Source: a virus. From it: a DNA stretch of 64,000 nt. The position numbers and the translations under genes are program-made. A model generated the notes under the pieces. The model had not been told where the DNA came from and made no database searches. It worked only from the letters and a program-made list of their open reading frames with translations. Each line of letters opens with the position of its first letter. The first letter of the stretch is position 1. The DNA lies in IMG/VR virus record IMGVR_UViG_3300010430_000004, positions 1 through 64,000 of that record, one strand, 5' to 3'. Shown piece by piece: positions 17,427-51,617 of this stretch.

Positions 17427-17446
17427 TTTAAATATCGGAGTTTAAT

Positions 17447-18274
17447 ATGAAACTTAAATACGGAAGTGACCTTGAAAAGAAGGCACCAAATTCAAGCTTT
17501 GAATACGACCATCCGCAACACGGAAAGTTGGAAGTAAATGCTCGCGTTGCTCCTAATAGTGGCAAAGTAAAGCTAAAAAGCGTAGGTGTTAAGGACGATA
17601 TCCATATTGGGGTAAAAGAGGCTGGTATTTCTAAAGAGCACAAGAAAGCTATGAGAGAAAAAGCTTCAAAAACTGGTATAACAAAGTGTGGTGATATGAG
17701 TACTAAAAAGACAGAAAAATCTGAAAAAATGGAAAAATCTGAAAGAGATGTAGCTGTTGCTATTCTTGATAAAGTTAGAGAACTTGCTAAGGGCCATAAC
17801 AGCTCCCATGTTGTTGAAGAAGGTAAAAAAATTACTCCTTCTGATTCAGAGCGTGTATCTGAATCCAAAGTTGACGGTTCTGAGTCTGATGATGTTGAAA
17901 CTACTCATGCAGATGACAAAAAGAACAGCGAAGATTCTAATAGAACTGAGCGTTTTGAAGACCAACGTCATCCTGAAGTACGTGGATTAGATAAAGATAA
18001 GACTAAAAAGAAAAAAGATTCTGAAGACGATGATGAAGATGAAGACAGCAAAGATAAGTCTAAGAATATGGAAAAGAATGAAAAAGTAGCTCAAGCTATG
18101 GTTGATAAATCTAAAGAAATTTCTGCTAAGAAACAAAAAGACCAAAAAGCTAAAGAAGCTAAAAATATGAAGATTGTTGACAAGGTTATTAAAGAACACC
18201 CTGTAACAAAATCTGAAAAACCTCTTGTCGCTTTTCTTAAAAAAAGAGAAGCTAAAATAAAAGGTGATCAGTAA
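17447..18274 (+). CDS. charged putative internal head protein (MKLKY..DLEK leader)
   Basis: Shared leader; MEKS, LAKG, MEKN, VTKS motifs. Confidence 0.6.
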   Translation: MKLKYGSDLEKKAPNSSFEYDHPQHGKLEVNARVAPNSGKVKLKSVGVKDDIHIGVKEAGISKEHKKAMREKASKTGITKCGDMSTKKTEKSEKMEKSERDVAVAILDKVRELAKGHNSSHVVEEGKKITPSDSERVSESKVDGSESDDVETTHADDKKNSEDSNRTERFEDQRHPEVRGLDKDKTKKKKDSEDDDEDEDSKDKSKNMEKNEKVAQAMVDKSKEISAKKQKDQKAKEAKNMKIVDKVIKEHPVTKSEKPLVAFLKKREAKIKGDQ

Positions 18275-30738: not shown

Positions 30739-30797
30739 AATATAACATGGATTGTTAAAAAATGCAAATTTATTTACATAAATGACTCAAAATGAGA
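30739..30797 (-). promoter_or_regulatory. sigma70-type early promoter + palindromic operator (leaderless helicase mRNA)
   Basis: TTGCAT-17-TATATT with extended TG; operator TGACTCAAAATGAGA at 30783-97. Confidence 0.8.
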
Positions 30798-33443: not shown

Positions 33444-33516
33444 CTATACCGAATACTATACCGAATACTATACCGAATACTATACACAGAATAAGAATAA
33501 GAATAAGAATAAGAAT
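33444..33516. repeat. tandem repeats (CTATACCGAATA x3.5; AGAATA x~5)
   Basis: Read directly; intergenic. Confidence 0.95.
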
Positions 33517-35003: not shown

Positions 35004-35555
35004 CTACTGTTTTACTTCTTTAAATCTAGATGGACAGTTATCAGCGTGTAAAGCGTCTTTAATTGTTTTCTGTCCACAAGTACACTTTGGATGATGTTCT
35101 TTAAAAAAGAACTTTTTAAGTTTATCAGCCTCAGTTTCCTCTGTTTCTTCTTCTGCTTCTTTGATCATTTCCTTAATTTCTTGCTTCTTAACCTCATTTT
35201 CAAGATCTGTTAATGATGATCCTGTAGGCAATGTTACAGTGTTCCAACGATTGGTGTTTGTTTTACTTTCAAGGTGTTTGTCAAGATCTTTCACTTTGCT
35301 GGTCACTATACTGTTTAGGTCTTGACTAAACTCAATAACAACTTCTGGTATATTTATTTGTCCACCAACGTCTTTAAAGTCATCATGTTCAAGATAGAAA
35401 TAATAAGTCCCTATCCTAGTAGGGTCATGCTCAATCATTACCAATTTAATGTCCTTTGGTAATTGAGAGAGAATATTCCTATAGGCATAGTGATTTAAAG
35501 GCCATTTATTTGCGTTAAGCCCTACATTATTAATTGCTATCTTGATTTGCCTCAT
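35004..35555 (-). CDS. hypothetical protein with C-terminal CTCG..H..NCP Zn motif
   Basis: ATGA coupling. Confidence 0.65.
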   Translation of the reverse strand: MRQIKIAINNVGLNANKWPLNHYAYRNILSQLPKDIKLVMIEHDPTRIGTYYFYLEHDDFKDVGGQINIPEVVIEFSQDLNSIVTSKVKDLDKHLESKTNTNRWNTVTLPTGSSLTDLENEVKKQEIKEMIKEAEEETEETEADKLKKFFFKEHHPKCTCGQKTIKDALHADNCPSRFKEVKQ

Positions 35556-36112: not shown

Positions 36113-36170
36113 AATATAACATAGATTGTTAAAAAATGCTAGTAAAATTTTAAAACGTCTCAAAATGAGA
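36113..36170 (-). promoter_or_regulatory. sigma70-type early promoter + operator
   Basis: TAGCAT-17-TATATT; operator CGTCTCAAAATGAGA at 36156-70. Confidence 0.8.
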
Positions 36171-36527: not shown

Positions 36528-37169
36528 TTAGAAATTAAGTCCACCATTAAGGTAAGCAGATCCTTGCATATGAATTTGTCCACCAATGCTATAACGTTGT
36601 TTTTTACCAAAACGTCTTTGATACATAAGACCCATATCAAATTCTTCATCAGTTTCAGCACGATAACTGCCAGTAGCTTCTTTGACTTTTAATTTAGTAG
36701 GTGTAATGCCAACAACTAAACTAATAGTGTTTTTCTTAGAAATGTCACGGTCAACATATTCTGTACGAATGACTACAGGTTTAATTTTCTTTTTGCTCTT
36801 AACCACTTTAATTCTGTTTTGGTTTCTTGGTACAATTTTAAATTTGTCACCATCAAGCTCAACAGTTTTTCCATCCTTAGTAGTGCGAACAATTTTGGAG
36901 TCTTTAAACACTTCAGGTGTTTCTTCTTTTACATAATGCTTTTCTACATCACTTGTATCTACATTACATACTCCAGTTTTATCTAAAATACACTCAGTAA
37001 ACTCTCTGCTATCTTCATCCATGATCTGATCTAATTCAAAAAGAAGCTCAGTATCAGCCTTGGCATTGACAGCAAAGGCCATAGTTAGTAGAATAATAAC
37101 TGCTAGTGTGTTTAGTACTTTTAGTGTTTTGTTAAAGTTCATCATTTTATTTCTCCTATTTAAGTTCAT
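36528..37169 (-). CDS. secreted protein with C-terminal outer-membrane beta signal
   Basis: Signal peptide ending AKA; four amphipathic strands ending YLNGGLNF; true start probably ~37145. Confidence 0.7.
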   Translation of the reverse strand: MNLNRRNKMMNFNKTLKVLNTLAVIILLTMAFAVNAKADTELLFELDQIMDEDSREFTECILDKTGVCNVDTSDVEKHYVKEETPEVFKDSKIVRTTKDGKTVELDGDKFKIVPRNQNRIKVVKSKKKIKPVVIRTEYVDRDISKKNTISLVVGITPTKLKVKEATGSYRAETDEEFDMGLMYQRRFGKKQRYSIGGQIHMQGSAYLNGGLNF

Positions 37170-37171
37170 TA

Positions 37172-38332
37172 TTAGTTAAAGTCCAAAACTTTTATAATCA
37201 TAGATGAGTATTCGCCTTCTATAGTAACTTGCAAGTCATCTACCCAACAAATCTCACCTTGCTCATCATTGCTGTTCTCACCAGAAGCAATGTTGTTACA
37301 ATAAGCAAATCGTCCACCACCACTATGATGACAGTCATCATTATTGTAAACATCTGCATGGTCACCTTCATTTTCAACATAAAGACCTGGAGCAATATTA
37401 TAGCATTGGCCAGTAACAGGGGTCAAAACAGTAGACAAGATAACAGCATCAGTACCGTTAGTACCATTAGTTCCATTAGTTCCATTAGTTCCATCAGTAC
37501 CGTTAGTTCCATTTGTTCCATCTTTGCCGTCTTTACCGTCTTTGCCGTTTTCAATAACAAGCTCAGATCCGTCATCACAAACAAGTTTATTGCCTTTTAA
37601 AGTACAGGATTTGCCATCAGTGCCGTTAGTTCCATTTGTACCGTTAGTGCCATCAGTGCCGTTAGTTCCATTTGTACCGTTAGTGCCATCCACACCGTCT
37701 TTACCATCTTTACCGTTAACACCGTTAGTACCGTTAGTGCCATCAGTACCATTTGTGCCGTTGTTTCCTGTATCACCTTTAATATTTGTTTGAAGAACCC
37801 AAACTCCAGCGATTCTTTTAAATACGTCATTGGTATTGGTATTGATAAAGGTATCTCCATCTTTGCCGTCAACACCGTCAACAGGATCTACTGGACCATA
37901 AAGAACTTCAGAACCATCAGCACCATTTAAACCATTAGTACCGTCAACACCATTAGTACCGTTAGTACCGTTTGTTCCAGCAATTCCTTGAATGCCCTGA
38001 GTACCTTGAATGCCCTGAACACCTTGCTTGCCTTGAGCACCAGTAGCGCCTTTAGGTCCGGTTGCTCCTGTAGCACCTGTTGCTCCTGTAGCTCCAGTGT
38101 TTCCTTTGTCGCCTTTTGCTCCATCCACACCGTTAGTACCATTTAAACCGTTAGCTCCATCAACACCATTGTTAATGTCGGCTGTTGTTCCATCTTGACA
38201 TTCAATAGTTCCACCATTAGCGGTGTCTACTACAGTACAAGAGTCTCCTTTAGCTGTTCTAAACTCAACTGATTCATTGGCTCCACAAGCAGTTAATGCC
38301 AGCATCCCCAAAACAATTAATAAATTTTTCAT
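37172..38332 (-). CDS. collagen-like lipoprotein
   Basis: Lipobox LTAC; long G-X-Y (GTN, GKD, GAT) tracts separated by Cys-bounded knobs. Confidence 0.85.
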   Translation of the reverse strand: MKNLLIVLGMLALTACGANESVEFRTAKGDSCTVVDTANGGTIECQDGTTADINNGVDGANGLNGTNGVDGAKGDKGNTGATGATGATGATGPKGATGAQGKQGVQGIQGTQGIQGIAGTNGTNGTNGVDGTNGLNGADGSEVLYGPVDPVDGVDGKDGDTFINTNTNDVFKRIAGVWVLQTNIKGDTGNNGTNGTDGTNGTNGVNGKDGKDGVDGTNGTNGTNGTDGTNGTNGTNGTDGKSCTLKGNKLVCDDGSELVIENGKDGKDGKDGTNGTNGTDGTNGTNGTNGTNGTDAVILSTVLTPVTGQCYNIAPGLYVENEGDHADVYNNDDCHHSGGGRFAYCNNIASGENSNDEQGEICWVDDLQVTIEGEYSSMIIKVLDFN

Positions 38333-38354
38333 AATATTCTCCTTTGTTTATTTT

Positions 38355-38413
38355 AATATAACTTATTTTTTTAAAAAATGCAATTAAATTTTTACAAATG
38401 TATCAAAACGAGT
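38355..38413 (-). promoter_or_regulatory. sigma70-type early promoter + operator
   Basis: TTGCAT-17-TATATT; operator TGTATCAAAACGAGT at 38399-413. Confidence 0.8.
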
Positions 38414-38416
38414 CGA

Positions 38417-38632
38417 TTAATGATAACTTTCGAAATCGTCTTCAACATCGTCTTCAATTAAACTTTCTTCGAATCTATTATATATTTCCCTTTCTTGCAT
38501 AATACGAACAAGGTCTTCAACTGTACTTAGCCAAGTCTCATCGTATTCTAACATTGGATCGTCTATTAACATATCTTCATGCTTTTTTAAAGCATCTAGC
38601 AGTTCATTATTTGTTAGGGCTTCTAAGCGCAT
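38417..38632 (-). CDS. small acidic hypothetical protein
   Basis: RBS AGGAG; D/E-rich. Confidence 0.6.
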   Translation of the reverse strand: MRLEALTNNELLDALKKHEDMLIDDPMLEYDETWLSTVEDLVRIMQEREIYNRFEESLIEDDVEDDFESYH

Positions 38633-39084
38633 TGTGATTTCTCCTTTTTACGTTCATTATATTGTTTAAGTTCTTCAGCATTTGCTTCAATAAGCATAGC
38701 ACAATCTGCTTGGTCTTTGCCTATATAGTTGATTACCCTTGTTTGTGTATTTTTCCATTTTCCTTCTCCATTACACCAATCTCTCATTTGAAGAAAATAA
38801 AGCATAGAGTTGTAGTTCATGTTTAGTTCCACAGCCAAAGCAACATGATCAGGAGTGTTTCCTTTTTGACTAAGACCACTATCAAGAACAGCAAATACTT
38901 CTTGGTCTTCATACTTTCTCTTTTTATAGCTCTTAAGCTGCTCAATAAGACTCAATACATCTCCAAGGTCTTTGTTGGCTCTTTGTATTCTATCTTGCAT
39001 TGTTGGAATGTTAGCCAATGGCTTTAAACTGTCAACAAGGTCTTCAGCTTTCTCTAATTTCTTTTTCAAATAATTTGGTGTCAT
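38623..39084 (-). CDS. hypothetical protein
   Basis: RBS AAGGAG; follows an early promoter. Confidence 0.65.
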   Translation of the reverse strand: MTPNYLKKKLEKAEDLVDSLKPLANIPTMQDRIQRANKDLGDVLSLIEQLKSYKKRKYEDQEVFAVLDSGLSQKGNTPDHVALAVELNMNYNSMLYFLQMRDWCNGEGKWKNTQTRVINYIGKDQADCAMLIEANAEELKQYNERKKEKSQCA

Positions 39085-39105
39085 CAGTGCTCCTTAGTTA
39101 ACTCC

Positions 39106-39164
39106 AATATACCACGTTTTTGTAAAAAAAGCTACTATTTTTTTACAAACGTTTCATTTTGAGA
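39106..39164 (-). promoter_or_regulatory. sigma70-type early promoter + operator
   Basis: TAGCTT-17-TATATT; operator CGTTTCATTTTGAGA at 39150-64, inside the upstream CDS. Confidence 0.75.
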
Positions 39165-39455
39165 ATCTATAATTGTTTCAAGATCTTTACGATTAAGAGG
39201 GCCAATTCCAATTCTGTTTGGTCTACCAAGATCTACCCACAATTTAAAGTCTTCTATGCTTGGAGTGCTGTAAGGGCTCCAGTCCATTGACTCTTCTTTA
39301 AACACTGTACGCATATCAAGCCTATGACTAGTCTCAGTATCCCATTGAAGCATTTGCACCTTAACTATGTGAAATATTTTGATGTTATCGTCTTCATAGT
39401 CTTTTTCAGGCAAATACTGAACGCCTTTATAAGTAAATTGATCAAATAGTTTCAT
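39135..39455 (-). CDS. hypothetical protein
   Basis: GGAG RBS before ATG 39455. Confidence 0.6.
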   Translation of the reverse strand: MKLFDQFTYKGVQYLPEKDYEDDNIKIFHIVKVQMLQWDTETSHRLDMRTVFKEESMDWSPYSTPSIEDFKLWVDLGRPNRIGIGPLNRKDLETIIDSQNETFVKK

Positions 39456-39942
39456 GTTCAACTCCGCAACCAATTACTTGGTTTTCTTGGTTAAGATAAA
39501 CAGCTCTATTATCTATTAGACTATCCATATAATAATCAAGGTTTAATTCATAATAGGGATCGTAGCCAAAGGCATAACTATTCATTATACTAACTGGCTT
39601 TGTATTCTCTTTATTATTATTGTGTGCAAGGCCAAAGTGACAATGACCAAGCTCATGGAAAATTAATTGATGAATAGCATAATAGTTGTGTTTATTGTTT
39701 TCAAAAAATTCAATGTCTATTACCACTCTGTAGTCTTTGCCATAATAGCATCTGCCAATGACATTGCCATCGTTTATTTCTGCAAATTCAACGCTTACTC
39801 CTATAGAAGTGTTATAAACACTTTCAAATTCTTCAACATAGTCTTGAAGTTCATACTCAATGAACGGCTTTCCCATGGCTTTAAAAGATGCGTTGTCACA
39901 CCCCATGAAGCAAAAAGAAAGCAAGATAAGTAACAATTTCAT
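39442..39942 (-). CDS. lipoprotein zinc metallopeptidase
   Basis: Lipobox FMGC; LIFHELGHC.FGL.H ... P.SIM Met-turn. Confidence 0.8.
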   Translation of the reverse strand: MKLLLILLSFCFMGCDNASFKAMGKPFIEYELQDYVEEFESVYNTSIGVSVEFAEINDGNVIGRCYYGKDYRVVIDIEFFENNKHNYYAIHQLIFHELGHCHFGLAHNNNKENTKPVSIMNSYAFGYDPYYELNLDYYMDSLIDNRAVYLNQENQVIGCGVEHETI

Positions 39943-40316: not shown

Positions 40317-40377
40317 AGTATAACACGTTTTTGTAAAAAAAGCAAACTTTTTTGTAAAACTGTCTCATTTCGAGACG
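40317..40377 (-). promoter_or_regulatory. sigma70-type early promoter + operator
   Basis: TTGCTT-17-TATACT; operator TGTCTCATTTCGAGACG at 40361-77. Confidence 0.85.
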
Positions 40378-41412
40378 TTAGGCCGCATTTATCCAGCTTG
40401 GAGAGAAATCAATCAATTTATAAGTGCCATCAAGGTAAACAACATTTCTCTCGTGAACATCTTGATGATAAATACCTGTTGACTCTTCAAGTGTTTCTTT
40501 AAGCTCTTCCATTACGCTTTCTACTTCATATTCACATAAGTCAGCCTCTTCAACGGTAATGCCACAATGCTCCATAAAAATAACAGCCACCCAGCCATGT
40601 GAAGTTTTGATTGCATGAGCACCATAGCCATAAGGTGTAACACCGCTTGATTCAGCTTGTTTGATGATCTCAAACTCTCTCTTAGCGTCATTAAAAGCCT
40701 CAGTATCTCTAAGAGCTGTTGAGCTACTCTTGATGTTGGCTAGGTTGTGGTGACGAGTGCCATTGATAATTAACTTAGCTCCTACACCCATGTAATGGGT
40801 ATAAAGGCTATATGAACCAACACTGCAATCGTTGTCTTCATCAATACCATTTTCAATATAGTCGCCAAGCTTTTTGTCAAGAGCATCAATTAGTTGACGC
40901 TTTACGAAAGTTTTCAGTGCCTTTTTCTTTGGTGGAATTCCAGGCTTAGTAACTCCACTGCAATAAGAGATAGGTGCTCCATTGAACGGTACGTTTGGTA
41001 CATAGATAAAGTAAGAACCATCTTTGCTGACTACTTTATACATAGGTCTATAGTGTCCATAGTTTCCTGTATGATTGATGTCTTTGAGACCACACCAAAC
41101 AAAGTGGCTAAAGTTGGAGATAATAGCCCTGTGATCGTCAGTAAATGGGTTGTCTTTTTGTTTTCTAGGTTTACCGTTTAGTCTGAAAGCGTATTTGTTT
41201 AACCACTCAATGCCAAGCTTTGTTTGCTCAGGAGTGATGTCGATACCTTTCTTAAGCTGGTGCTTTATGAGCGTAATAAGTTCAAATCTATCAGAGTCGT
41301 GATTTCTCTCTTCTTCTCTTTTCATGCGACAAACCTGATCTATTTGAGTCTTTATGAAAAGGTTAGCTTTAAGGGCATCTCTGTATCTCTTGATAGTTTG
41401 CTTAGTCATCAT
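40378..41412 (-). CDS. protein with C-terminal Ser/Thr kinase-like domain (RIO/Bud32-like)
   Basis: VGAKLI (Lys), KREF (Glu), IFMEH, IYHQDVHERNV, KLIDFS. Confidence 0.8.
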   Translation of the reverse strand: MMTKQTIKRYRDALKANLFIKTQIDQVCRMKREEERNHDSDRFELITLIKHQLKKGIDITPEQTKLGIEWLNKYAFRLNGKPRKQKDNPFTDDHRAIISNFSHFVWCGLKDINHTGNYGHYRPMYKVVSKDGSYFIYVPNVPFNGAPISYCSGVTKPGIPPKKKALKTFVKRQLIDALDKKLGDYIENGIDEDNDCSVGSYSLYTHYMGVGAKLIINGTRHHNLANIKSSSTALRDTEAFNDAKREFEIIKQAESSGVTPYGYGAHAIKTSHGWVAVIFMEHCGITVEEADLCEYEVESVMEELKETLEESTGIYHQDVHERNVVYLDGTYKLIDFSPSWINAA

Positions 41413-41442: not shown

Positions 41443-41524
41443 CTATCGGTGGCTTGTAAAAAAACTTATGCCTCAATTCGAGAAAAATGCAAATTTTTTG
41501 AAAAAACTTTCTCAAAATGAGACA
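41443..41524 (-). promoter_or_regulatory. sigma28/FliA-type promoter + two operators
   Basis: ATAAGTTT-N11-ACCGATAG; operators start at 41469 and 41508. Confidence 0.8.
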
Positions 41525-41530
41525 GGCTAT

Positions 41531-41719
41531 TCAATTAATAAGCTTTTCAAGCAAATCCTTGTTTTTGGCTATAGCACTACACATTACAGTGTTGCAAATG
41601 TTTGTATTTTCTACATTTCTGTCTATACGCTTGTTGGTTCGGTAAAGCCATAACAGGCAACTGATTATAAGTATACCATGTACAGCAACAAAAGCTATAA
41701 ATAAGTCTGTATGGTTCAT
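41531..41719 (-). CDS. small membrane protein
   Basis: N-terminal TM; RBS AAGGAG. Confidence 0.55.
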   Translation of the reverse strand: MNHTDLFIAFVAVHGILIISCLLWLYRTNKRIDRNVENTNICNTVMCSAIAKNKDLLEKLIN

Positions 41720-41922
41720 GTGTTCTCCTTTAGAAAATAAATCTCAATGTTACTTAAACAGTCTTGGTCTGCTAAATTCTTAACAGTTTCCAATACTTGC
41801 GTCTGTTCTTCAGTCAGTGTGTTGTTAACCCACAGTTTTCCAACAGCCTCAATAAAACCTTGGTTGCTAGAATTGTCTTCATAGATCTTCAATAAACGTT
41901 TGTTAAATATAGAGTTTTTCAT
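41716..41922 (-). CDS. hypothetical protein
   Basis: ATGA coupling in the early operon. Confidence 0.55.
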   Translation of the reverse strand: MKNSIFNKRLLKIYEDNSSNQGFIEAVGKLWVNNTLTEEQTQVLETVKNLADQDCLSNIEIYFLKENT

Positions 41923-42106
41923 CAGTGAGCCTTTACTGGTTCATAAACTTCATAGCTATCATAGCCACTTAGCGCGTTAAAAAAGTCAATTAGATCATCA
42001 CACGTCTCGAAATGATACGTGTTAACTTTTCCATTAGTCACGGTTGCTAGTGTCCAATAGATTGACGCTTCTTTTTCCATCTCTAGTAAGCTCTTCATAT
42101 ACTCTC

Positions 42107-42334
42107 CTATGCTACTTTCTTGTTAGTGTTCAATTTCTCGACAAAAATGTCAGCAACTGCTTGTTCACCATAAGTTGCTATCATATTGCTTAATTGTAGT
42201 CTAATAGCCTCTTTTGGATGAGCCATGAAATACTCAATGTTCAGGGCATGAGGTCTGGTAACAGTGTCATCAAACAGTTCTGCTTCAGCTTTCTTATCTA
42301 ATGCTTTGGTTTTATTCATCTTAATCGGTTTCAT
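42107..42334 (-). CDS. hypothetical protein
   Basis: RBS AAGGAG. Confidence 0.6.
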   Translation of the reverse strand: MKPIKMNKTKALDKKAEAELFDDTVTRPHALNIEYFMAHPKEAIRLQLSNMIATYGEQAVADIFVEKLNTNKKVA

Positions 42335-42343
42335 AAATTCTCC

Positions 42344-42661
42344 TTAGAAAATAAGCACATAGCCGTGCTGTGATAAGTTAGTGATATCTGTTAAGTTTTC
42401 CATGTGACTTTCAGCAATCGTTTTGAGTTCACATAAACCCAATCGTCCACAAGAAAGCTGATACTCGTTGTAATTGTCGTCTTCATCGTAAAAGCAGAAA
42501 GCGATAGTGCTCTCGTCTCCATTGTCTTTGTTATAAAGAGTGATACCTACCGAGAATTCTATACCACTCATGTCTGCTCCATCACAGGCCAAGTTGCAAT
42601 CAAGGGCATGGGTATTAAAAGGTTGGCTGCTCCATTCACTGTCCATTGTAGTTGCTGTCAT
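42344..42661 (-). CDS. acidic early protein
   Basis: RBS AAGGAG; first gene after a FliA-type promoter. Confidence 0.65.
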   Translation of the reverse strand: MTATTMDSEWSSQPFNTHALDCNLACDGADMSGIEFSVGITLYNKDNGDESTIAFCFYDEDDNYNEYQLSCGRLGLCELKTIAESHMENLTDITNLSQHGYVLIF

Positions 42662-42693
42662 TTTTCTCTCCTTTAGTTTTCCTTACAAATTAC

Positions 42694-42774
42694 TCATCGG
42701 TCAACTTTCAAAAAACTTATGCCTCAATTCGAGATTTTTCAAAAAAAGTTAAAAAACTTTCTCGTTTTGATACG
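42694..42774 (-). promoter_or_regulatory. sigma28/FliA-type promoter + two operators
   Basis: ATAAGTTT-N11-ACCGATGA; operators start at 42720 and 42758. Confidence 0.8.
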
Positions 42775-42776
42775 CT

Positions 42777-43304
42777 TTAGCTTGCTTCTTGCTCACTAGC
42801 TATCTGTTGGAGTTCGTCTAAGAGGCTATCCACGTCTAGGATGCTGACCCATCTGTCATAGCTCATGTTTAGGTAAAGCCAACCATCGTCACTGATATAG
42901 CCATCATCGACTTCTCGTTGTACCGTCTTCTTTTCGTCTTCAGTTAAGGCTTTAAAAGCGTCATGCAATTCGTCTTCTGGTTGGATTTCTACTTCACCCA
43001 AAGTCATGCCATAAACCTCATTGCTTTGATAGAAAACACCCTCACTAAAGCGCACAGTGCAATGCTTGTGAATGAGAGTAAGGGCTTCATCGTTTTCAAT
43101 ACCACACTTTTCTAAAAGCTTAGCGATATCATGGCTTTCCTCAGAATCAACGTTTTGTAGCGCCTCAATAACAGTGTCAATAGCCTCACCATAGCCATGG
43201 CTTTCTACAAAGTCAGCTGTACCGTTGTCTGGATTGTTTGTGTAGTACTCTGTACCCCATTCACACTCATTCATGTACTTTTCGATAATTTGCTTAACAG
43301 TCAT
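42777..43304 (-). CDS. very acidic early protein
   Basis: RBS AAGGAG before ATG 43304. Confidence 0.65.
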   Translation of the reverse strand: MTVKQIIEKYMNECEWGTEYYTNNPDNGTADFVESHGYGEAIDTVIEALQNVDSEESHDIAKLLEKCGIENDEALTLIHKHCTVRFSEGVFYQSNEVYGMTLGEVEIQPEDELHDAFKALTEDEKKTVQREVDDGYISDDGWLYLNMSYDRWVSILDVDSLLDELQQIASEQEAS

Positions 43305-43328
43305 ATACTCTCCTTTGGTCATATTTTC

Positions 43329-43408
43329 TTATCGGTGGGTCTACAAAAAACTTATGTCTCAATATGAGAATTTTGAAAAAAGTTAAAAAACTTTCTCAAA
43401 ATGAGTCA
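43329..43408 (-). promoter_or_regulatory. sigma28/FliA-type promoter + two operators
   Basis: ATAAGTTT-N11-ACCGATAA; operators start at 43355 and 43392. Confidence 0.82.
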
Positions 43409-43693
43409 GTCAATGTCAAGGTTGCGTTGTTCAATGTCATCATGGTAATCTCCAGCCATCAGCCACAACACCTTGATCTGTAAGTCAGCCTCATCCATGT
43501 CAGTTAGCTCATCCAGCGTCCACGCTCCAGTGTCTCTCAAATACTCTACCATCAACGGTCTCTCGGGAAAGTCCACCTTTTCAGAGTAGTCAACACAGTC
43601 TTGGTAACAATCACCTGCATGGTAACAAGCCTCTAATGCTTCAATGCTGATCTCCATTTCAAAGTAACTAGTCGTCATTATTATAGTTTCCAC
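43406..43693 (-). CDS. very acidic early protein
   Basis: RBS AGGAG; GAW..DEL motif. Confidence 0.65.
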   Translation of the reverse strand: METIIMTTSYFEMEISIEALEACYHAGDCYQDCVDYSEKVDFPERPLMVEYLRDTGAWTLDELTDMDEADLQIKVLWLMAGDYHDDIEQRNLDID

Positions 43694-43745
43694 AAATCTC
43701 TCCTATCTATTTAGTATTGCTCAAGAATCGCACGTTCTCTTGGTC

Positions 43746-43934
43746 TCACAGATGATTCTCAAAATCGCTAGTCACTAGGTTCAACATTTCTATCAAGGTT
43801 TCTGTGTCATAGATCACTCCACGATCAATGGCACGAATAATAGCAGCATTATCAGCTACCACTTTTTCTTCAGTGCTATGGCACACAATCAAATTGGCTA
43901 GTTGTCTGATTGCTTTTCTTAAAACGTTGTTCAT
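43746..43934 (-). CDS. hypothetical early protein
   Basis: TAATG coupling. Confidence 0.6.
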   Translation of the reverse strand: MNNVLRKAIRQLANLIVCHSTEEKVVADNAAIIRAIDRGVIYDTETLIEMLNLVTSDFENHL

Positions 43935-44215
43935 TATCCTTCTCCTAGCAGTTCAGCTACAGTGCTCATAAAGTCTACTGGAACTGTGATTTCGATACTG
44001 TCTATTTCACAAAAATCTAACTCAAGAAAGTCACCATTGTCACTCTCAACGTCACTAACCTCTACTACGTGTCCACCTATAGAGGTCATTGGGTATTTCA
44101 TGCCTTTAGACAAAGCAGTGGCATCTGGACAAAGATCTTCACTCCATAGATAGTCGATAACGTTTTCTATTCTATTCATTCCAATCTCTTCTAGTGTCAT
44201 TCTTAGTGTAATCAT
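43934..44215 (-). CDS. very acidic early protein
   Basis: First gene of the leftward block; RBS AAGGAG. Confidence 0.65.
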   Translation of the reverse strand: MITLRMTLEEIGMNRIENVIDYLWSEDLCPDATALSKGMKYPMTSIGGHVVEVSDVESDNGDFLELDFCEIDSIEITVPVDFMSTVAELLGEG

Positions 44216-44236
44216 CAGTGCTCCTTAGTTAATTTC

Positions 44237-44317
44237 TTATCGGTCAACTACTAAAAAACTTATGACTCATTTTGAGAAAGTTGCAAAAAATATAAAAAAC
44301 TTTCTCGAAATGAGTCG
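44237..44317 (-). promoter_or_regulatory. sigma28/FliA-type promoter + two operators
   Basis: ATAAGTTT-N11-ACCGATAA; operators start at 44263 and 44301. Confidence 0.82.
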
Positions 44318-44319
44318 TG

Positions 44320-45206
44320 ACTGATCGGGACAAGAATAGCGTCCTGATACGTCCTGATTAGGTCTATAGGGTATTACATAGCCACCTATATGCCTCTTAG
44401 AGGCAGACCTACGTGGCTAGAATAGGGGCATGAAACTATATGATTTTGCAACAGATTCGGGTATATACGCGCAGTTGCTGAGAGCTGTTAAGAGTGTGCT
44501 ACTATGGGGTTTGGAGCGCCCCATTGCGAACAGCCCCAACTGCCCAGAAAAACTGACAGTGGCCCATACAGGCAGACAGACAGCCAATCAAACAATGACC
44601 CTATCATACAGCCACCTAACAGACAGCCACCCAGTTAGCTATGGCAAAATGCTAGAAATTTGTATAATTTCGCGTATTTATAAAAATTTTGTGTGTGTTT
44701 TTTCCAGAAAAAGTTGCAGAGCTTGAGAAGCGTGAAAAATGTCGCCTAACTTATCGAAATCATTACAGATCTATTTTGTTTTGCCTATTTACGCGTAGGT
44801 TTTGCCCTAGAGGGAGCATGAGTTTTGTACGTGGCTCTGATAAAGTGGCTGATTGGAGTCGGCTAGTTGTGTCGCCTTTGTTGCCTGTCTGTTGTGGTCG
44901 TCTCTTTGTTGTGGCCTATAAGAAAAGCCTAGAGTCAAAGGCCCCTTGCTAGCTGTGGTAAGGGTTCAACCTTCTTTTCCATGCAGAGAAAAGGCCCCTG
45001 GGGGGTTGTCTGAGCTTTCCACCACTGACGAGGGACCCGTTGGATCCTTCTGACACAGTGGTTCGCCTCATGCAGTGTAACCATGAAAGTCCAGAAAAAT
45101 AGGTACCCCCTTACCATAGAAAACGGAAAAGGGTACCTCAAGGAATCCTGCAAAAAAGGAATCCTATACTGGAGTCCCGATACTAAAGTAGTGGACCATG
45201 GAGTCC
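44320..45206. other. non-coding divergence region (candidate genome terminus/packaging site or origin)
   Basis: GC-richer, no RBS-supported ORF, transcription diverges, hairpins and repeated short motifs. Confidence 0.55.
45178..45185 (+). promoter_or_regulatory. putative middle promoter (CGATACTA)
   Basis: Heads the rightward block; the motif recurs at 45587, 47091, 47600, 48121, 48746, 50695, 51426, 52526, 61041 (+) and 63203 (-). Confidence 0.65.
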
Positions 45207-45230
45207 CCAACCCTCTTAAAAGGAGAACAC

Positions 45231-51442: not shown

Positions 51443-51530
51443 ATCTATGCTATCTTACCCTGGAAAGGCGTATTGAATCATTCTGCGGATTCTGTAGGAA
51501 AGTAAGTCATAGATAGGGAGTAATTGCCCT
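51443..51530 (+). ncRNA. structured RNA 5' of the tRNA-like element
   Basis: ATCTATG/CATAGAT, CTTAC/GTAAG, CCT-GGAA-AGG, GAATC/GATTC. Confidence 0.5.
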
Positions 51531-51599
51531 GGAAAAGTAGTTTAATTGGTTAAAACCCCCTCGTTGAGGGGAATGTCGGTTCGAGTCCGGCCTTTTCCG
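51531..51599 (+). tRNA. tRNA-like element (Asn GTT-like) with anticodon arm 4 nt too short
   Basis: GGAAAAG/CTTTTCC, GTTT/AAAC, CCCTC-GTT-GAGGG, GTCGG-TTCGAGT-CCGGC; no CCA. Confidence 0.75.
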
Positions 51600-51617
51600 A
51601 TTTTTTTAGGAGAATTT

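Follow-up and report, generated by a model that had tools for sequence, protein, structure and literature searches.

Four promoter cassettes that fit the sigma-28 (FliA) type head a leftward module of small genes in virus record IMGVR_UViG_3300010430_000004, the 168,536-bp genome (36% GC) of an uncultured Mx1-like myophage; the window analyzed here is its first 64 kb. We propose that these cassettes are read by the FliA of the host and carry sites for a host factor, and that the host is probably a member of the Bdellovibrionota. Judged from sequence, this model as a whole has a probability of about 0.7, and it is fairly likely that host FliA, a Bdellovibrionota host, and a host binder all apply jointly. 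The record contains major capsid, tail sheath, and baseplate genes, and among cultured phages Myxococcus phage Mx1 is the closest to it, with 52% capsid identity (the corresponding value for the SPO1 capsid is ~25%).

The cassettes fit sigma-28-type promoters

The first-pass annotation had described four intergenic cassettes of 27 nt on the minus strand, each reading ATAAGTTT-N11-ACCGATRR. All four were recovered at the positions given there, compared with an expectation of ~0. A looser pattern, TAAGTTT-N10..12-CCGAT, matched five times in the window (0.04 expected from shuffles); the fifth match, at 17434-17456, has a shorter spacer and was assigned to another promoter class. With the spacer fixed, there were exactly four matches in the whole genome, all of them intergenic. 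The cassettes point at genes with a ribosome-binding site and lie 24 to 36 nt upstream of the start codons. The conserved repeat spans ~77 to 80 nt, in the order box, A/T tract, second box, 2 nt, -35, 11 nt, -10. The 27-nt description was thus right about the promoter half but omitted the upstream boxes of the ~80-bp unit, which are common to both the sigma-28-type and the sigma-70-type promoters.

The Escherichia coli sigma-28 (FliA) class 3 consensus is TAAAGTTT-N11-GCCGATAA (PMC2859248). The cassettes have a -35-like and a -10-like octamer separated by a fixed 11-nt gap, in intergenic positions and in the matching orientation. The -35 element is ATAAGTTT in all four, with one mismatch to TTAAG and two to TAAAG, and the -10 element is ACCGATAA in two cassettes and ACCGATAG and ACCGATGA in the others. 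Start sites were predicted by analogy with the promoter map of Bdellovibrio bacteriovorus HD100. The predicted start of cassette 2 (43321-43322) coincides with an in-frame ATG that lies six codons ahead of the start codon that follows a Shine-Dalgarno sequence, so a leaderless form of the 175-amino-acid (aa) protein is possible.

Related phages carry sites of the same type. Among 26 candidate sites from this phage, four close contigs, and five further phages, 25, including all of the promoter-like ones, share the 15-nt spacer, and many of the 25 carry the full sigma-28 consensus. The four close metagenome contigs retain box and promoter, two of them with a perfect -10. The consensus -10 GCCGATAA occurs in L114, L116, G010, and G029, and relatives have TAAAG or TTAAG as the -35. 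A further contig from the metagenome scan, L115, was a Flavobacterium-like chance match and was discarded. In clade members G005, G010, G015, G021, and G029, small genes are preceded by one to four copies that match the consensus fully or nearly, and in G010 and G015 these copies head the module beside a divergent gap. In all, sigma-28-type sites occur in ~6 of the 17 near-complete clade records, and G030, a partial record, adds a seventh with one site; the phages that bear them are dispersed on the capsid tree and include a branch at 53% identity. The match to the consensus and the copies in five relatives bear out the sigma-28 assignment made in the first-pass annotation.

Such promoters are absent from Mx1, whose small-gene region has ~30 TTGAC-type sigma-70 promoters instead. 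Myxococcus is not known to have flagella. The ~30 sigma-70 promoters of Mx1 (86-121 kb) have a GGATC/AGATC word in the spacer, often repeated after the -10.

The phage encodes a truncated sigma factor and carries three further promoter classes

Genome-wide, the phage has four promoter classes: the sigma-28-type cassettes (class A, four copies), a sigma-70 type (class B), CGATAYT (class C), and AATCTTTA (class D). Class B, T[AT]GC[AT]T-17-TGnTAT[AG][TC]T, has 16 copies scattered across the genome; five lie in the leftward module, each with a single box 17 to 18 nt upstream of the -35 (center, ~-58). Class C comprises 16 intergenic sites without a -35 that precede replication genes, an RNA cluster, and the operon of the phage sigma factor. 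Class D comprises 18 intergenic, late-type sites before structural genes, and its motif also occurs near the capsid genes of many relatives. Class C sites are often located in divergent gaps, back to back with a late promoter. These are two -10-only classes, and one phage sigma factor was found.

That sigma factor (350 aa; genome positions 96788-97840) belongs to the sigma-70 family and comprises regions 1.2 to 4.1 without region 4.2. It was located through synteny with Mx1, whose sigma factor it matches at 32% identity, and it has a sigma fold; a Foldseek search returned only sigma-70-family matches, at E values above 0.001. Pfam and TIGR sigma models matched nothing in the genome, so the protein escapes them. 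At least 395 homologues exist, all from this phage group among those seen. A profile of the family aligned with Aquifex FliA over regions 2 and 3 and the start of region 4 and then ended, and the family terminates on a common C-terminal motif. The phage sigma factor and its family therefore end in region 4.1 and are missing the helix-turn-helix that reads the -35. A search of the genome for a second phage sigma factor found none; a weak FliA match of the open reading frame (ORF) at 35004-35438 lies on an E/K-rich stretch and was taken as composition bias. Because the phage sigma factor is without region 4.2, host FliA is likely the reader of class A, a view in which we have considerable confidence.

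A palindromic box is common to the phage and to Bdellovibrionota genomes

The box is a palindrome, CTCRWWWYGAG, which its flanks extend towards 15 bp (GTCTCA-N3-TGAGAC, with an A/T middle). Each cassette has two boxes, centered at ~-42 and ~-80. The genome contains 12 exact boxes (~1.4 expected), 10 of which are within 30.7-44.3 kb. The inner box, at ~-42, touches the -35 in the four cassettes and in eight sites of close relatives, which is the position of a class II activator. One-mismatch boxes also occur in coding sequence of the early module (42006-42016 and 42417-42427). In G029 (160.1-162.6 kb), the place directly next to the sigma-28 -35 is taken by another palindrome-like element, TTGCAATTTTGCA. 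In G015 (137.7-145.6 kb) and G030 (L144:118-5676), 14 to 16 boxes and 49 to 60 half-sites are spread over small-gene regions, some of them intragenic; a function as a protein sponge or in DNA entry is possible for these regions.

The 15-bp box is enriched in bacterial genomes of one phylum. In 81 Bdellovibrionota genomes, it occurred 60 times, compared with 6 for a reversed control, with up to 13 copies per genome; in 81 Pseudomonadota genomes, the counts were 4 and 3. Phylum was assigned from the names given as the source for the seed genomes, and from G326, whose coordinates match those of HD100. A frame test classed 17 of 20 sampled host-genome boxes as non-coding. Among the 92 mapped FliA promoters of HD100, Bd0551, Bd2343, Bd2486, and Bd3181 have a box with no more than one mismatch 2 nt upstream of the -35, compared with 0.17 expected; this is a hand count on Table S2 of PMC3627812, and the expectation covers two offsets. 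Bd0848 has a box with two mismatches at the phage geometry, and Bd3268, Bd2102, and Bd3772 have one 3 nt further out. Sister genomes retain the Bd2486-type box, with a diverged spacer.

Host genomes carry the motif natively, which makes a host protein the simplest candidate for the binder; we predict a dimeric DNA-binding protein, and the spread of the boxes would fit an abundant Fis-like or nucleoid-type factor. Such a factor may assist the promoters, which we favor by a modest degree of belief: the box overlaps a weakened -35 (ATAAG) in this lineage, box-free relatives have a consensus -35, and the host promoters that share this geometry yield 99 to 1198 start reads despite poor -35 pentamers. 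Repression is a less probable role, for which the contact between the inner box and the -35 speaks, as does the inability of CRP to activate sigma-28 at this position (PMC2859248), and simple titration of the factor is doubtful.

Several features point to a Bdellovibrionota host

The phage encodes an M17 aminopeptidase (genome positions 145209-146693). Four of its five nearest named bacterial homologues are from Bdellovibrionota, the one that was checked is chromosomal and adjoins secA, and in a quick tree of the peptidase the phage group nests among Bdellovibrionota. All five box-bearing Bdellovibrionota genomes that were sampled have a FliA above the cut-off. Box enrichment in the phylum and a peptidase derived from it together support the earlier guess of a predatory host, and a Bdellovibrio-like predator of the Bdellovibrionota is, on these sequence signals, the likely host. 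Searches of an atlas and of plasmids gave no host signal, and the cultured Bdellovibrio phages phi1402 and phi1422 showed no clear sigma-28 promoter cluster and no box excess.

In type, the phage promoters resemble B. bacteriovorus FliA promoters; the first-pass annotation left out a one-base difference in spacer from most of them. The B. bacteriovorus promoters are mostly TTAAG-N16-CCGATA, with an N15 minority that includes that of the flagellin gene Bd0606 (PMC3627812). Box-rich Bdellovibrionota genomes show both spacers (15 and 16 nt).

Alternative explanations

A number of observations weigh against the model. The M17 peptidase was acquired long ago (40 to 45% identity) and so marks a lineage rather than the present host. 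The phage sites are all N15, as in E. coli, and do not match the majority spacing of HD100. A capsid search of GTDB returned six unrelated bins of metagenome-assembled genomes and no coherent host. The distance from box to CCGA was flat across 201 Bdellovibrionota genomes, with no peak at the phage value; a two-fold excess of this pairing appeared in Myxococcota as well; and the exact pattern of box plus consensus promoter had no match in viral contigs or GTDB genomes. The boxes of G015 and G030 are without fixed spacing, and an E. coli sigma-28 promoter is not activated by CRP when the CRP site is at -41.5 (PMC2859248).

We considered whether another sigma factor could read the cassettes. It is very improbable that they are sigma-70 promoters in which TAAGTT is the -10, the box lies in the spacer, and CCGAT is incidental. 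Cassettes 1 and 4 and most close relatives do have a TTGCA-like hexamer that precedes TAAGTT by 17 to 18 nt and whose distance from the outer box equals that in the sigma-70 cassettes; it is perhaps a relic, or part of a weak overlapping or vestigial sigma-70 promoter. However, the cassettes scored -10 to 4.5 bits (best per cassette, 0.6 to 4.5), compared with 18.5 to 23 for class B, and the invariant CCGAT 12 nt downstream and the consensus sites in relatives would be left unexplained. Reading by the phage's own sigma factor, whose region 2 is FliA-like, would make the cassettes middle promoters that only resemble flagellar ones. The best NCBIfam match of this protein is indeed the sigma-28 model, weakly (25.7 bits; cut-off, 378), its region 2.4 aligns with that of Bdellovibrio FliA including an acidic residue, and the genome has the -10-only CGATAYT class. 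Yet the protein lacks region 4.2, and the -35 and the spacing are invariant in 25 sites. Mx1 and G002 carry the same sigma factor and have no class A promoters, which, with its end in region 4.1, upholds the claim of the first-pass annotation that a host sigma factor is the reader. Two -35-less classes are at hand for the phage sigma factor, which is itself encoded in an operon with a CGATAYT site at its head; class C or D is its more plausible target, and a FliA-like region 2.4 would fit CGATA. We regard its reading of the cassettes as unlikely.

Two other explanations concern the host and the binder. The promoters could be of the sigma-28 type in some other flagellated bacterium whose FliA uses a 15-nt spacer, and the attack-phase logic would then be void. 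The spacer of 15 throughout the phage, compared with mostly 16 in HD100, would suit this explanation, as would the fact that the sole cultured relative infects Myxococcus. Against it, peptidase ancestry and box enrichment both indicate Bdellovibrionota, CCGATAAG is the -10 extension that occurs most often in the HD100 map, and the box-rich genome G254 has two 15-nt promoters; we consider another host improbable. There is a somewhat better, still low chance that the box is the operator of a phage repressor that closes the early module, with a specificity that either derives from the host motif or resembles it by coincidence. A second candidate binder exists in a 115-aa Fis-family helix-turn-helix protein (genome positions 130425-130772), whose gene has a sigma-70 promoter and for which no close homologues were found. 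Fis-type genes are present in G000, G005, G013, G015, and Bdellovibrio phage phi1422 (gp46); G015 has many boxes, G005 has three near its Fis-type gene, and the inner box contacts the -35. But G013 has a Fis-type gene and no box excess, host genomes themselves carry the motif, and at the sigma-70 promoters the box lies 17 to 18 nt upstream of the -35, a poor position for blocking. The assignment of the cassettes to host FliA would be unaffected by such a repressor.

Genome setting and genes behind the cassettes

Cassette 1 is the first promoter to the left of a strand-switch zone that is a candidate genome end or origin, a role suggested by its position (Table 1). By this layout, and by analogy with SPO1, the cassette-headed module may be the first to enter the cell and the earliest to be expressed. 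The ten genes preceded by the cassettes are all orphans, seven of them acidic. The last ORF behind cassette 1 matches phrog_14450, to which no function is assigned there. The 343-aa protein has a weak kinase-like C-terminal domain (Bud32/RIO/APH type), for which every match was below the cut-off.

Table 1. Promoters, genes, and the strand-switch zone in the window
Feature	Position(s)	Strand	Details
Strand-switch zone	44315..45230	none	Mostly non-coding; gene direction and GC skew flip there
Cassette 1	44237..44314	-	Boxes 44304-44314, 44266-44276; -35 44256-44263; -10 44237-44244; predicted start ~44229
Genes of cassette 1	43406..44215	-	ORFs of 93, 62, and ~95 aa; acidic (pI 4.1-5.1); no Pfam family
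Cassette 2	43329..43405	-	Boxes 43395-43405, 43358-43368; -35 43348-43355; -10 43329-43336; predicted start ~43321
Gene of cassette 2	42777..43304	-	175-aa acidic orphan, pI 4.1; 47% identity to ORF on metagenome contig L117
Cassette 3	42694..42771	-	Boxes 42761-42771 (1 mismatch), 42723-42733; -35 42713-42720; -10 42694-42701; predicted start ~42686
Genes of cassette 3	41531..42661	-	Five ORFs of 105, 75, 58, 68, and 62 aa; no family
Cassette 4	41443..41521	-	Boxes 41511-41521, 41472-41482; -35 41462-41469; -10 41443-41450; predicted start ~41435
Gene of cassette 4	40378..41409	-	343 aa; 38% identity to ORF on L113
Sigma-70-type promoter with box	40317..40374	-	Promoter 40317-40345; box 40364-40374, 18 nt upstream of -35
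Sigma-70-type promoter with box	39106..39163	-	Promoter 39106-39134; box 39153-39163 (1 mismatch)
Sigma-70-type promoter with box	38355..38412	-	Promoter 38355-38383; box 38402-38412 (1 mismatch)
Sigma-70-type promoter with box	36113..36169	-	Promoter 36113-36141; box 36159-36169, 17 nt upstream of -35
Sigma-70-type promoter with box	30739..30796	-	Promoter 30739-30767; box 30786-30796; upstream of helicase gene
Class C sites (CGATAYT)	5219, 8164, 27884, 33429, 45185, 45594, 47607, 48753, 61048		Middle-type, single-box
Class D sites (AATCTTTA)	5236, 8161, 10043, 11760, 15643, 16659, 17427, 21245, 27912, 55195, 63629		Late-type, single-box

Further along the module (36528-39942), box-bearing sigma-70 promoters precede genes for a secreted protein, a collagen-like lipoprotein, and an HExxH metallopeptidase-like lipoprotein, which are candidates for superinfection exclusion or envelope functions. 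Two short tandem arrays (TTCTTA and a 12-bp unit) at 33445-33515, upstream of a 318-aa gene beside a DnaB-like helicase gene, are a candidate replication origin. A degenerate tRNA-like gene at 51530-51600 has no assignable anticodon, and a terminator scan gave results at chance level only.

Discussion

FliA promoters make up 92 of the 140 mapped attack-phase promoters of B. bacteriovorus (PMC3627812). Since FliA runs most attack-phase transcription there, the module might be startable in a swimming, non-growing cell, the state in which the phage would most probably encounter its host. In the course of infection that we propose, phage DNA would enter a swimming attack-phase cell, where host FliA holoenzyme and a host box-binding factor would transcribe the ten orphan genes. 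Sigma-70 promoters would then serve the remainder of the module as well as other non-structural genes, and the phage-directed classes C and D would come last, at least one of them read by the truncated phage sigma factor. The first-pass annotation had also proposed a switch to sigma-70 promoters further in. These promoters do lie further in, but the change is one of position along the DNA and need not be a timed switch, because attack-phase B. bacteriovorus also has active sigma-70 promoters (PMC12622784).

Lytic phages are assumed to start with the housekeeping sigma factor or a polymerase of their own. Here, several branches of a clade put a life-stage sigma factor before small-gene modules, and the Myxococcus-infecting member does not. 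The occurrence of sigma-28-type sites in several branches and their absence from Mx1 suggest that promoter type may follow host physiology, which could make it a host clue for uncultured phages. If the model is true, the phage appears wired into the life-stage control of its host. The palindrome is a concrete candidate regulator site in Bdellovibrio, where control of the switch from attack to growth is an open question. More tentatively, a lytic phage of predatory Bdellovibrionota may use FliA together with an abundant, undescribed host regulator of GTCTCA-N3-TGAGAC, and so read the life stage of its host and expose a global attack-phase cis-element. The 80-bp cassettes are candidate attack-phase expression parts for B. 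bacteriovorus, a species with available reporter tools (PMC12622784).

In the literature that we searched, which leaves most subscription papers outside it, we found no description of sigma-28 promoters heading a lytic early module or of the palindrome in Bdellovibrio. What is new here is a cultured negative control (Mx1), two independent host signals, and a cis-element common to host and phage.

Known systems share parts of this arrangement. Bacillus phage SPO1 has a host-takeover module of small orphan genes with repeated promoters for the host polymerase, followed by classes that depend on phage sigma factors. The small-gene regions of SPO1 and Mx1 have the same array layout as the module described here; both use the housekeeping sigma factor, whereas the first four promoters here are of the sigma-28 type. 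The E. coli FliA class 3 promoters (PMC2859248) have the same two elements and 11-nt gap, and relatives of the phage carry their full consensus. They differ in having TAAAG/GCCGAT where the phage has ATAAG/ACCGAT, and the phage promoters precede non-flagellar orphans. The HD100 attack-phase promoters (PMC3627812) are similar in their CCGATAAG-type -10, loose preceding base, and non-flagellar targets, and in at least four of them the palindrome likewise stands 2 nt ahead of the -35, a feature that PMC3627812 does not report; the host spacer is mostly one base longer. The CRP-activated aer promoter of E. coli (PMC2859248) is also of the sigma-28 type and also has the site of a dimeric regulator upstream, but its motif differs, and CRP needs -49.5, whereas the phage boxes are at ~-42 and ~-80. 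Finally, the prophage flagellin gene fliC-P (10.1101/2023.11.30.569447) is another case in which phage DNA recruits host FliA; there, it does so for one lysogenic flagellar cargo gene, and here, at the predicted head of a lytic early module.

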